IMG/VR virus record: IMGVR_UViG_3300029288_000001
Span: 96,001 to 160,000 of that record
Origin: a virus
Lineage: Duplodnaviria > Caudoviricetes
Length of the DNA stretch: 64,000 nt
Direction: 5' to 3' (one strand)
Shown here: positions 1,997 to 61,226 of the stretch, one piece after another
Layout: each line of letters opens with the position of its first letter
Position numbering within the stretch: the first letter of the stretch is position 1
Program-made: the position numbers and the translations under genes
Notes under the pieces: model-generated
Database searches by the model: none
Seen by the model: the letters and a program-made list of their open reading frames with translations, nothing else
What the model was told of the DNA's origin: nothing

Positions 1997-3131
1997 TTAA
2001 ACCTCTTCCTTCATGAAGTCTTTCCATTCTTCGTCGAACTCTTTTTTAAGACCGTGATTACAACACACCTGTAAGGCAATAACACCCACGAATATCGTTT
2101 TCATAAGAGCCGCCGCTAATTCGTCGTCGATCACGTTATTCTTAATCCATTTCGTTAATATATCCACTGTATAAGGATCGTTTTCTGAACTCATTTGTTT
2201 TGTTCTCGCCTCTTTTCTATGTGCTTAGCGTAGATATTTTGTTGATCTACGATCCATTTCGTTATGTCGTCGATCGTAGCTTTTCCATCAATAAGTGCAA
2301 GTATAGATAGTCTCGCGTCTTGTGCGCCTACCATGCGTCCTTCTTGCCAGCCATCGTCGTAGAACTTGGTTTTTATGTCCATCATTGGAGGGAATGTTTC
2401 GTATAACTTACAATATTCCCAATACTTATCATGAATAAACTTCTCCAAAAACTCTCGCGCTTCTTTCTCTTTAAGGTATTTTACTCTATACTCTTCTTCT
2501 TCGTCCGTAACTTCTCTTCCCTCATTCTTCGTCTTGGTTAATATACTCTATAAAATCCTTTTGTTTTAAGTTCTCTTGTTTAAGGTCGGCAACTTCTTTT
2601 TCGAGATCGTTACATTTTTTTTCGAACCATTCTTTATTACTCTTGGAGATAATCGCTTTATCGTTCTCCTCCTCCCACATCCTCATAGCTTCTATTCTCG
2701 CTCTAACCTCTTCGTGGAGCTTGTTATCGGCAACTCTACGGTCTTCTAACCATTCTTCTCTCATGTTCTTAATACGTTCGTCTCGTTTAATGATCTGATT
2801 GTGTAATACTTCAATAGCTGATAGAACTCTTCCACTAAATTGAGGATCACCAGATAAATGAGCTAACGCTCTACACGCTTTATCTACTAACGCTTCTATT
2901 TTCTCGATCTTCATTTTTTTAAGCACCTACCACTCTCTTCGTAGAAATAGGGTCTTTGTCTTTATTTATTATTACCGCTCGATTTAACTTACACGAATAA
3001 CTAAAATCGTAATCGTGTTGCATTATTCCAGAATCAAAATAATGATATGTTTTTATTTTGATATATCTACACCCATAACAACACTCTTGGCATCTAAATC
3101 CTATAGCTCGGATTTTCTTATACCACTTCAT
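1997..3131 (-). CDS. Four small hypothetical proteins (1997-2194; 2191-2508 with probable ACG start; 2522-2926 coiled coil; 2919-3131)
   Basis: Tightly packed or overlapping minus-strand ORFs with purine-rich RBSs. Confidence 0.6.
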
Positions 3132-3961
3132 TTCTTGACTACTCCTTCCATTCTCGTATACGCTTCTTTAGTTTTATAGAAATGAGCTTTACGGTCTTCA
3201 TCCGTTACCTTTTCGTAGCGGGCGTTGGTCTCGTAGGTACTGGCAGGGCAGGTATCGTGGAATGACATCACGCACCCTAGCAGATGGGAGCACATATTGT
3301 CGTAGTAATAAGGACATAACGGAAAGGTATACCACATATTACACCCCGTGCATTTCATTTCTACGATACGCGCGTCTTCGTGGACTTTATACTCCGTGTT
3401 CGCGATATAACTGTGCCATAAATGCGCTCCACAGTTCTTACACACGCCAAAAGTACTTAGATCAAAAGGGCTGTCGTCTTCTTTTGTTTCGATCGTAATA
3501 GTAGGCTCTTCTTTTAGATCGGGGTTTAAGTCGTTATAAGATACGATCTTCCCGTAGTAGATTTTCCAATCGTTATCGCCTTGGTCTATCTCAAGATGAT
3601 CGATTCTCTCGAAACGGTAAGTCCCTTTCCACTTCCGTAGCACCCACGCTTGCTTCTTTAGTTTCAACGCGAGCGCGATCTCGTCGTAGACTCCCTTCCC
3701 AACATGGTCTTTATACTCGGAAAATATTGTAACATCTGCCCAGTCCCGTATTTTATCGAAGTATATCTTCATATCGCGAGTTGGGTTGGGAACATCCTTT
3801 GGATTACACAGTTCTAACATCCGTGGCGAAGGAATATGGGTATACCACTCTTTTATGAACTCTTCCTCCATCATTTCCTCAGGCGTGTTATACTTTCTAA
3901 TACTATGCCCGTAATACACGCGCATTGGTTGATTGTTCTCGTATTTCTTCTTACTTTTCAT
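3128..3961 (-). CDS. Nucleoside deoxyribosyltransferase-like (TIR/NDT fold) domain plus Cys-rich C-terminus
   Basis: RVYYGHSIRKY...LCNP...IFSEYKDHVGKGVYDEIALALKLKKQAWVL resembles the NDT-like GxGxxxE motif; CxxC pairs downstream. Confidence 0.55.
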   Translation of the reverse strand: MKSKKKYENNQPMRVYYGHSIRKYNTPEEMMEEEFIKEWYTHIPSPRMLELCNPKDVPNPTRDMKIYFDKIRDWADVTIFSEYKDHVGKGVYDEIALALKLKKQAWVLRKWKGTYRFERIDHLEIDQGDNDWKIYYGKIVSYNDLNPDLKEEPTITIETKEDDSPFDLSTFGVCKNCGAHLWHSYIANTEYKVHEDARIVEMKCTGCNMWYTFPLCPYYYDNMCSHLLGCVMSFHDTCPASTYETNARYEKVTDEDRKAHFYKTKEAYTRMEGVVKK

Positions 3962-4011
3962 TCTTTTTTCACTTAATTATTATTATTTTACTATAAAAAA
4001 ATTAAAAAAAA

Positions 4012-59987: not shown

Positions 59988-60460
59988 TGAATAGCGACGA
60001 TCTAAAAGAACTTACCAACAAGGTTCAAGGCTTTATCGAGAAGAAAGGATGCGTGGTGCCGATCTCCGTGAAGGTAAAACCATTTCCCAAGAAGAACGAG
60101 AAGATCCTAGCTCTTTATAGGTCTATGTCCCAGTTTAAAGCGAAACCTATTTTCTGGATAAACGAGAACCTTCCCAAGCTCATGGAAGAATACGATGTAG
60201 AACCTTACCGCTACAATGATGTCGTGGAGGATAATATGATTCACGAATATGCCCATTCTATTGCCGAGTGGGCTAAGAAACGCGATCCTGACTTAGCCGA
60301 TGCGCTCCAATCTACCTTTATAGACGAAGAGGAGTTCGCGGAAGGGTTCATAGACTACGTGAAAGACAGGACCGTGAAATACACTACCAGTTCCTACGAT
60401 CGCGTAATGGACAAGTATTGTAAGAGTAGATTTCCAGAACAAGAACAAGAAGAGGAGTGA
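59987..60460 (+). CDS. HExxH metallopeptidase-like protein
   Basis: MIHEYAHSIAE...EEEFAE. Confidence 0.7.
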   Translation: MNSDDLKELTNKVQGFIEKKGCVVPISVKVKPFPKKNEKILALYRSMSQFKAKPIFWINENLPKLMEEYDVEPYRYNDVVEDNMIHEYAHSIAEWAKKRDPDLADALQSTFIDEEEFAEGFIDYVKDRTVKYTTSSYDRVMDKYCKSRFPEQEQEEE

Positions 60461-60467
60461 GACAAGC

Positions 60468-61226
60468 ACGAGCGAAAAGAAGCGACCCAACGAAGACATG
60501 CCTCAGATTTCCCAATACGGAGGGGCGTGTGGACTTACCAGCTTGTTAATGGCGTTAAAGCCCGAGGCTCGGGGTTTCGCTCCTTTACTAAACGAAGTCG
60601 CAAGACGGAAGAAGATCGTGAAGCCCACGACAGATAAAGGCAAGAACTGGCAACAATCCTTAGAAGTGCTCTTAACGGAAATTCCCAAGAAGAAACCCTT
60701 GCAAGAGATCGTGCGCGAAGACTACGGCGACGACTTTACCGACGGGATGCTTCCGTTACTGGAATACGACATAGAAGAAACGAGTAAGCACCACCGCACG
60801 CGCGATAACGCGTGGTTAATGGACCGAGTTAACGTGTGGAAAAAGAATAGCGAACTCTCCATGCTCGCGTCCTTGTTTGGATGTAAGATTAAACCTTATA
60901 CTCCTACGCCAGACGGCACGGGAAGCGTTTCGTTTAATTGGAAAGAACTACCAAACATCATAGAAGAAAAAAAGAAGTTCCTTGGCGATCGCGTTAACTA
61001 CGAAGACCCGGTAGTGTGCAACACAGGAGGACATTGGATCGCGATCAAGGAATTAGATAAGGACAAGATAAAATATCATAATACTGGGGGGTATGGCGTA
61101 TACACGCGCGATCTATCGGACTTTTCCGAGGACCAGCGGTTCTACGCGTTTAAATGCTCGCCAGAGAAATGGAAGCGTAACCAACGGATCATCCGTAAGG
61201 CGCTCTTCCCGCCCAAGAAACGGTAA
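60468..61226 (+). CDS. Papain-like (C39-type) cysteine peptidase
   Basis: SQYGGACGLTSLLM (Q..C), GHWIAI (H), YHN. Confidence 0.7.
   Translation, partial: TSEKKRPNEDMPQISQYGGACGLTSLLMALKPEARGFAPLLNEVARRKKIVKPTTDKGKNWQQSLEVLLTEIPKKKPLQEIVREDYGDDFTDGMLPLLEYDIEETSKHHRTRDNAWLMDRVNVWKKNSELSMLASLFGCKIKPYTPTPDGTGSVSFNWKELPNIIEEKKKFLGDRVNYEDPVVCNTGGHWIAIKELDKDKIKYHNTGGYGVYTRDLSDFSEDQRFYAFKCSPEKWKRNQRIIRKALFPPKKR

Follow-up and report, generated by a model that had tools for sequence, protein, structure and literature searches.

ACG as a probable translation start codon in a virus of a likely Asgard archaeal host

The DNA analysed here, which we call the window, is a stretch of 64,000 nucleotides comprising bases 96001–160000 of a single 224,826-bp viral record (IMGVR_UViG_3300029288_000001; 41% GC). 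In the genome of this virus, ACG appears to be a working near-cognate translation start codon, read by the ordinary initiator tRNA and tolerated by the host lineage, and we put the probability of this reading at about 0.75. By a rough count, ~20 viral genes would begin at ACG, corresponding to ~8% of the genes led by a Shine–Dalgarno (SD) motif and making ACG at least as frequent a start as GTG. Within the window, seven ACG genes are well supported and three more are likely (Table 1). An initial annotation of the window had pointed to ten ACGs as starts, attributed them to relaxed initiation as a host trait or a means of tuning expression, and named C-to-U RNA editing as an alternative; all ten ACGs are present at the positions that it gave.

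Results

Homologues place the first residue at ACG in four families

Alignment of homologue N-termini supports an ACG start in four families, those of the genes at 8545 (minus), 28656 (minus), 44664 (plus) and 60468 (plus). For the first two, it had been claimed that families with diagnostic N-termini begin exactly at ACG, in a TAA-A-ACG context behind GGAG. Both parts of that claim held, as the context is present at the two sites and the homologues' N-termini align there.

At 8545 the sequence reads GGAGAGGAG-TAA-A-ACG and continues with codons for KIRNGFVSNSSSSSF. A single nucleotide separates the TAA of the upstream gene from the ACG, and no canonical start follows until an ATG at +33 codons. 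Every database homologue begins MKxRxGFVSNSSSSSF, with Met1 opposite the ACG-coded residue, and positions 2–95 of phrog_7397 align to residues 2–95 of the viral protein. Among 253 members of the family from 80 metagenomic loci, the start codon is ATG in 233, GTG in 16, TTG in 3 and another codon in 1, with ACG in none. A fusion product made by frameshifting or readthrough across TAA-A-ACG was also considered and is rejected, because the downstream gene has 253 homologues that stand as separate genes and begin at that residue. In other viral contigs this family occurs mostly in tandem arrays of 5–17 small genes; the present virus carries a single copy.

The sequence at 28656 reads GGAGGAGAAA-TAA-A-ACG and then encodes PNWC, with the next canonical start a GTG at +10. 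Positions 2–207 of phrog_12644 align to residues 2–201 of the protein, and two IMG/VR homologues begin ATG CCA AAC TGG TGC. The gene at 44664 has no canonical start before a GTG at +46, and the 46 codons ahead of that GTG have a coding score of +13. Six distant homologues have their Met1 opposite the ACG residue (for example, MSEL against TTEL), and the family's invariant P43-D44 lies upstream of that GTG. Initiation at the next NTG would therefore mean the loss of the invariant GFVSNSSSSSF motif, of PNWC and of P43-D44 in these three proteins.

The gene at 60468 has an ATG at +10 and, 5′ of its ACG, 20 open codons that include no canonical one. The PNEDMP motif upstream of the internal ATG is conserved among homologues with N-terminal extensions, and in a relative with 57% identity KKPNEDMP is retained in frame, downstream of a GTG. 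For comparison of orthologous starts, no close relatives were found in IMG/VR for three of the proteins, or in the JGI metagenomes for the 44664 protein. The relatives that did emerge are a 2.5-kb contig with 74% nucleotide identity, on which three genes all start with ATG, and a more distant contig of 12.7 kb.

SD-backed ACG is enriched across the viral genome

Genome-wide counts used a simple coding model trained on the genome, with SD spacing calibrated on ATG and a codon called SD-backed when the motif reached at least 5 nt. A strict census that required no model counted a codon if a stop preceded it by at most 8 nt, if the frame stayed open for at least 60 codons after it, and if canonical codons were lacking both upstream and within four codons. 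Across the 225-kb genome, this census found 25 of 128 ACGs to be SD-backed, against 5.6% of the pooled other sense codons (p = 4.6e-8), an excess of ~18 ACG sites. The recurrence of ACG at ribosome-binding-site spacing, relative to control codons, is thus borne out well beyond the window in which it had first been noticed. The 5′ regions of coding open reading frames (ORFs) gave 31 of 151 for ACG and 6.9% for the other sense codons (p = 3.8e-8), with an SD behind 20% of GTG and 38% of ATG codons. Spacing from the SD peaks at 9 nt for ACG, and the share at 7–10 nt is 65% for ACG, 61% for ATG and 39% for other codons. When the strict census was applied to 492 kb of unrelated viral contigs, ACG was SD-backed in 5 of 102 cases against 3.5%, with no excess, and the ACG signal is therefore not created by the method.

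Newly noted here is the base that follows: A comes next after ACG at 20 of 23 sites, compared with 44% of internal ACG codons (p = 3e-5) and 42% of ATG starts. ACG sites lie no nearer to upstream stops than ATG sites do (a stop within −4 to +3 nt in 65% versus 82%), but the ATG figure is inflated by ATGA, which makes the comparison uninformative on a requirement for termination–reinitiation. Two paralogues that are 39% identical both carry an SD-backed ACG at an aligned T[TP]D[KR]EL, and a third ACG gene starts, in alignment, within one residue of its paralogue's ATG. Outside the window, the RlaP nucleotidyltransferase domain of one ACG gene begins upstream of the first ATG. The excess of ATA and ATT in the viral genome is small (8% versus a 5.6% background). 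A few SD-backed ATT/ATA candidates lie at genome positions 38780 (plus) and 186045 (minus) and at window position 25462 (minus); the ATT at genome 38780, behind GGGTGAAATATAA, opens a frame of 195 codons with the next canonical codon at +66.

The genome comes from a single metagenome sample, and the only sequencing run that holds it is probably its source, so one could ask whether the ACGs are artefacts of sequencing, assembly or base modification and the true base is T. An independent assembly of that run by Logan (a landfill metagenome, ~16x) has zero differences from the record over positions 28600–48599, which contain five of the ACG sites. The association with an SD and a following A is unlike random error, 90 ordinary TAAAATG motifs occur elsewhere in the viral genome, and an ACG start of atpC is found in 15 independently assembled Asgard genomes (below). 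We therefore regard an artefact as extremely improbable. In the same assembly, positions 38654–39897 form a separate 1.2-kb contig at ~38x between flanks at 16–17x, which might reflect a repeat, another copy located elsewhere, or sequence in common with a different genome. This stretch holds a 234-aa ORF (39032–39736, minus) that matches no Pfam family.

Base composition bears on how the ACGs arose. As also newly noted here, the viral DNA is rich in CpG (rho 1.43) and poor in TpG/CpA (rho 0.75); this combination is the opposite of a methylation–deamination signature. The 74%-identical relative, which comes from another run and sample, has corresponding values of 1.33 and 0.75, and the sampled Asgard class 0.84 and 0.95. 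Because the relative bears the same CpG/TpG signature, we link the ACG habit to composition.

Such a composition would also suit a history of decay, in which a TG-to-CG bias destroyed ATG starts and left genes that are dead or that now begin at a downstream ATG, GTG or TTG, and gene callers did indeed report shorter products from downstream starts (P0003, P0128 and P0135). Against this, the frames remain open for 75–252 codons, and the stretches between ACG and NTG score positive for coding and hold the invariant residues of their families. The SDs are kept at the correct spacing, the enrichment of A after ACG is specific, and ACG persists both in diverged paralogues and in the host-class atpC of 15 species. 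Some of the ORFs have no canonical start whatever, or only one at +117. Decay is, in our judgement, highly unlikely.

The virus is probably hosted by an Asgard archaeon

IMG/VR classes the 225-kb record as a complete virus with direct terminal repeats, and its ends share a 30-bp overlap. A DNA search of deposited phages found no near match to the genome, a phage collection contained no close protein match, and most of the large viral proteins fell into no Pfam or PHROG family; a 773-aa orphan protein had no usable match in a protein atlas. The genes are small and closely packed, with strong GGAGG or GGTGA motifs 5′ of them. A bacterial jumbo phage, our first guess from the strong GGAGG sites, was dropped in view of short tRNA introns, MCM and RadA.

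ARAGORN finds a tRNA-Ser(GGA) with a 55-nt intron and a tRNA-Leu(UAA) with a 499-nt intron, both in the anticodon loop, and the virus encodes MCM and Rad51/RadA. On the strength of these tRNA introns, MCM and RadA we judge the virus to be archaeal. The best matches of the full-length viral RadA, including its N-terminal extension, are metagenome-assembled genomes (MAGs) of Promethearchaeia/Promethearchaeota, at 56–65% identity, whereas crenarchaeal RadA aligns to the core of the protein only. Promethearchaeia is a class within the Asgard kingdom. Together with a common start-codon habit, these RadA matches make an Asgard archaeon of or near this class the most likely host.

Promethearchaeia appear to keep near-cognate starts in conserved genes

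We surveyed 61 Promethearchaeia genomes for near-cognate starts. In the 22 genomes in which atpC could be aligned, the aligned start is ACG in 15, ATG in 5 and ATT in 1. The start always lies 6–9 nt 3′ of GGTG(A), the ACG reads ACG-AG[TC] in 15 of 15 cases, and seven genomes offer no canonical alternative. For atpD, the aligned start is ATA in 9 genomes, ATT in 7 and ATG in 6, so that ATA or ATT is used in 16 of 26 genomes with the N-terminal motif; a GGTG lies 6–8 nt upstream, and an in-frame stop mostly sits one codon before the start. In ~20 of 28 genomes, an in-frame stop in the aIF1 gene is followed by ATT or ATC and, further on, by a zinc motif, with no canonical codons across 23–88 codons. 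This gene (SUI1, the start-codon fidelity factor) appears to start at the ATT or ATC, behind AAGGTTGTGA and the in-frame stop and ahead of its conserved ICP[IK]CS zinc motif. In a control class, that of a Sulfolobales genome, a canonical codon lies upstream in 28 of 28 atpC genes, by a crude comparison of N-termini.

These host-class parallels lend support to the proposal that relaxed initiation is a host trait, with ACG in atpC (15 of 22), ATA or ATT in atpD and ATT in aIF1. Routine use of ACG is best seen, from the sequences compared, as a property of the virus, and the Promethearchaeia lineage as one that would tolerate it.

The same genes bear on editing, by which ACG would be turned into AUG in the transcript, in the fashion of plant organelles, and translation would begin at a normal AUG. 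ACG is the sole near-cognate codon that one C-to-U change converts to AUG, and ACG is far commoner in the virus than ATA or ATT, both of which are in keeping with editing. In plant organelles, C-to-U editing creates a start from ACG in genes such as ndhD and psbL, and the virus resembles these cases in having a genomic ACG exactly where homologues have ATG. It differs from them in that the two deaminase families searched offer no candidate editing enzyme and in that the lineage has ATA and ATT starts. The ATA, ATT and ATC starts of atpD and aIF1 are beyond repair by C-to-U editing, and relaxed initiation is therefore needed anyway. PF14432 (DYW) has no match in the virus or in three Asgard-like genomes, with none in control genomes either; the virus has no PF00383 (CDA-fold) deaminase, and the PF00383 genes of the three Asgard-like genomes are all of the ordinary housekeeping kind. 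Both the favoured A after ACG and the reliance on an SD are in line with selection of the start by the ribosome, and we know of no C-to-U editing of start codons in archaea or their viruses, which also counts against it. Editing, the alternative raised in the initial annotation, is accordingly decidedly unlikely and less economical than direct initiation at ACG.

A dedicated reader of ACG, whether an initiator-like tRNA with the anticodon CGU or a viral initiation factor, would suit a virus that acts on the tRNA pool, as this one does with nine tRNA genes, a CCA-adding enzyme and an RNA ligase. None of its tRNAs has a CGU anticodon, however, and its tRNA-Met lacks the GGG/CCC anticodon stem of initiators. 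Among the 61 host-class genomes, an initiator-type anticodon arm with CGT was found in none, in a search of limited sensitivity that recovered the CAT form in 15, and no SUI1/aIF1 homologue was found in the virus. We think a dedicated reader very improbable, and the ordinary initiator tRNA remains the preferred candidate.

Other ACG sites and features of the window

Beyond the four sites backed by homologues, the ACGs at 41833, 45639 and 15617 have strong support from their anatomy, which suggests that they are genuine starts: SDs of 5–8 nt lie at 9 nt, an in-frame stop occurs 2–5 codons upstream and the next canonical codon is 13–19 codons downstream (at 15617, the stop is 2 codons upstream and an ATG follows at +14). 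The genes at 23390 and 44347 probably start at ACG, and that at 9614 possibly does, with some ambiguity at each of the three. For the gene at 9614, the alternative is a same-frame ATG at 9656 that has no SD and would entail a 53-nt overlap with the upstream gene. The ACGs at 2508 and 4956 are weak candidates; from 2508, a TTG at +20 is the first canonical start to follow, and the stretch between the two scores +7.7 for coding. The initial list of ribosome-binding-site-backed ACGs therefore stands for 41833, 44664, 45639 and 60468, is ambiguous for 23390 and 44347, and is weak for 2508 and 4956. Pfam and PHROGs searches assigned most of the ACG genes to no family.

Table 1. ACG-started genes, weaker ACG candidates and RNA-related features of the window (window coordinates; codon offsets are counted from the ACG)
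Feature	Coordinates	Strand	Start context or remarks
MKxRxGFVSNSSSSSF-family gene, 224 aa	7871..8545	minus	ACG 8545-8543; SD AAAGGAG/GGAG
DUF1281/Api92-like gene, 203 aa	28045..28656	minus	ACG 28656-28654; context AAGGAGG...TAA-A-ACG
170-aa gene	44664..45176	plus	ACG 44664, directly 3′ of in-frame TAA; SD GAGGG/AAAGG
252-aa gene	60468..61226	plus	ACG 60468; SD GAGGAG at 9 nt; 7 nt 3′ of upstream TGA
96-aa gene	41833..42123	plus	SD AGGTGA at 9 nt; in-frame stop 2 codons upstream; next ATG +19
75-aa zinc-ribbon-like gene	45639..45866	plus	SD AAAGGAGG at 9 nt; TAA-T-ACG; next GTG +13
80-aa gene	15375..15617	minus	SD GAGGT at 9 nt; absent from the initial annotation
113-aa cysteine-rich gene (probable)	23049..23390	minus	AAGGTGA at 8-9 nt; TAA-A-ACG
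109-aa gene (probable)	44347..44676	plus	GGAGGG at 9 nt; TAA-C-ACG
171-aa gene (possible)	9099..9614	minus	AAAGGAGG at 9 nt; absent from the initial annotation
Weak candidate	2191..2508	minus	ACG 2508; only GAGG, spacing 11
Weak candidate	4636..4956	minus	ACG 4956; AAGGA 2-3 nt upstream; GTG +9; fails the SD criterion
tRNA cluster: Pro(TGG), Ile(TAT), Ser(GGA), Cys(GCA), Leu(TAA)	48516-49502	minus	
148-aa endonuclease VII gene	48969-49415		in the tRNA-Leu intron
tRNA-His	22242-22317		
tRNA-Glu	35498-35568		

Free-standing genes resembling HNH and NUMOD3-type homing endonucleases lie at 6956–7594 (minus) and 19106–19708 (minus) of the window, and a further NUMOD3-HNH gene lies at genome 174519–175445. 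Outside the window, four regions (genome 64500–68186, 90279–92480, 161433–166086 and 35553–36617) encode RadA/Rad51 with an N-terminal extension, MCM, ParB, a CCA-adding-type nucleotidyltransferase, a T4-type RNA ligase and a DNA methylase fused to LAGLIDADG and Mrr-like domains.

Discussion

We propose that, for initiation at ACG in this virus, an SD motif of the GGAGG or GGTGA type, at an aligned spacing of ~9 nt, would position the small ribosomal subunit with ACG in the P site. Pairing of ACG with the ordinary initiator Met-tRNA (anticodon CAU) could then occur despite a mismatch at the middle base, and the protein would begin with Met, presumably less efficiently than at ATG. The signal also appears to include the A directly 3′ of the ACG. 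The initiation machinery of the host would have to tolerate ACG, and the lineage itself seems to keep ACG starts in atpC and ATA or ATT starts in atpD and aIF1. The probable reason for the habit is that, in CpG-rich and TpG-poor DNA, changes from ATG to ACG would be favoured or kept wherever a weaker start is acceptable, if the mutational pressure runs in the direction that we infer.

Several points weigh against this proposal. Both initiation at ACG and the insertion of Met are deduced from sequence, and published reporter measurements indicate that Escherichia coli initiates very poorly at ACG. Some 7–10 of the 25–31 SD-backed ACGs are expected by chance, and individual orphan sites may be false. 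At three sites another codon competes for the start: at 41833 an ATA that precedes the ACG by one codon and is less well spaced; at 23390 an in-frame GTG that falls within the SD, four codons upstream; and at 44347 an ATG three codons downstream, which would lie ~18 nt from the SD. The host assignment rests on RadA similarity plus one common trait, and the sampled Promethearchaeia DNA has 29–31% GC and a CpG rho of 0.84, compared with 41% and 1.43 in the virus. Exchanges between TG and CG in the virus and its relative are symmetric (13 versus 15), with no sign of a directional drive from TG to CG. Finally, in 400 kb of one host-like genome, SDs were found at 2 of 14 candidate ACGs and no ACG excess was seen, in a comparison that is underpowered and made where SD use is weak.

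Near-cognate initiation is a known mechanism, and what we describe would be an SD-led, systematic form of it in an archaeal virus. Eukaryotes and their viruses initiate at ACG in cases such as VP2 of adeno-associated virus (AAV) and the C′ protein of Sendai virus. As in those cases, the codon here is one base from AUG and, judging from the sequence, would be read by initiator Met-tRNA as a weaker, context-dependent start. A dependence on eIF1/aIF1, the fidelity factor common to archaea and eukaryotes, would be a further likeness to eukaryotic near-cognate starts. The differences are that the viral ACG is placed by an SD without scanning, that the favoured next base is A instead of the G of the Kozak context, and that ACG would be the sole start of ~20 ordinary genes, whereas in AAV VP2 and Sendai C′ it starts a second isoform.

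Among prokaryotes, NCBI translation table 11 lists GTG, TTG, CTG, ATT, ATC and ATA as alternative starts, and E. coli infC, which encodes IF3, uses an AUU start through which initiation fidelity is autoregulated. The starts described here are likewise SD-led and non-ATG, and the ATT of host-class aIF1 parallels the AUU of infC. To our knowledge, ACG is on no prokaryotic start-codon table, table 11 included. For the tubulin gene atubA of a Kariarchaeaceae (Asgard) MAG, a rare ATT start behind a ribosome-binding site has been proposed from a truncated fold (bioRxiv 10.64898/2026.02.15.705738). That case differs from the virus in concerning one gene, ATT, and a non-systematic, non-viral use. Ribosome profiling in Haloferax found ~30% of putative alternative initiation sites to be near-cognate, and these were set aside (PMC7261190). 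Our full-text literature searches turned up no account of ACG starts in archaea, Asgard archaea or their viruses.

A more speculative extension, which we find doubtful, is that start choice in Asgard archaea and their viruses is not only relaxed but tunable in a eukaryote-like manner. In that scheme, aIF1 would limit its own synthesis through its ATT start, SD-ACG-A would be a signal for weak initiation, and the translation of the ~20 viral ACG genes would co-vary, in infected cells, with the activity of host aIF1. If so, ACG would be a regulatory device, more than a tolerated mutation.

For annotation, the consequences are immediate. Gene-finding programs accept ATG, GTG and TTG as starts by default, and in this genome such callers shortened or missed proteins (191 versus 224 aa, 124 versus 170 and 242 versus 252), cutting off the most conserved motifs of their families. 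With gene calling confined to these three codons, the N-termini of proteins of Asgard viruses and of core Asgard proteins (those of atpC, atpD and aIF1) would therefore be systematically misannotated. More broadly, the routine SD-led appearance of three near-cognate codons (ACG, ATA and ATT) at gene starts, along with the lack of a canonical start in aIF1 itself, suggests that near-cognate initiation arose, with its autoregulation, before eukaryotes did, and provides a possible link to the origin of eukaryotic start-codon selection.

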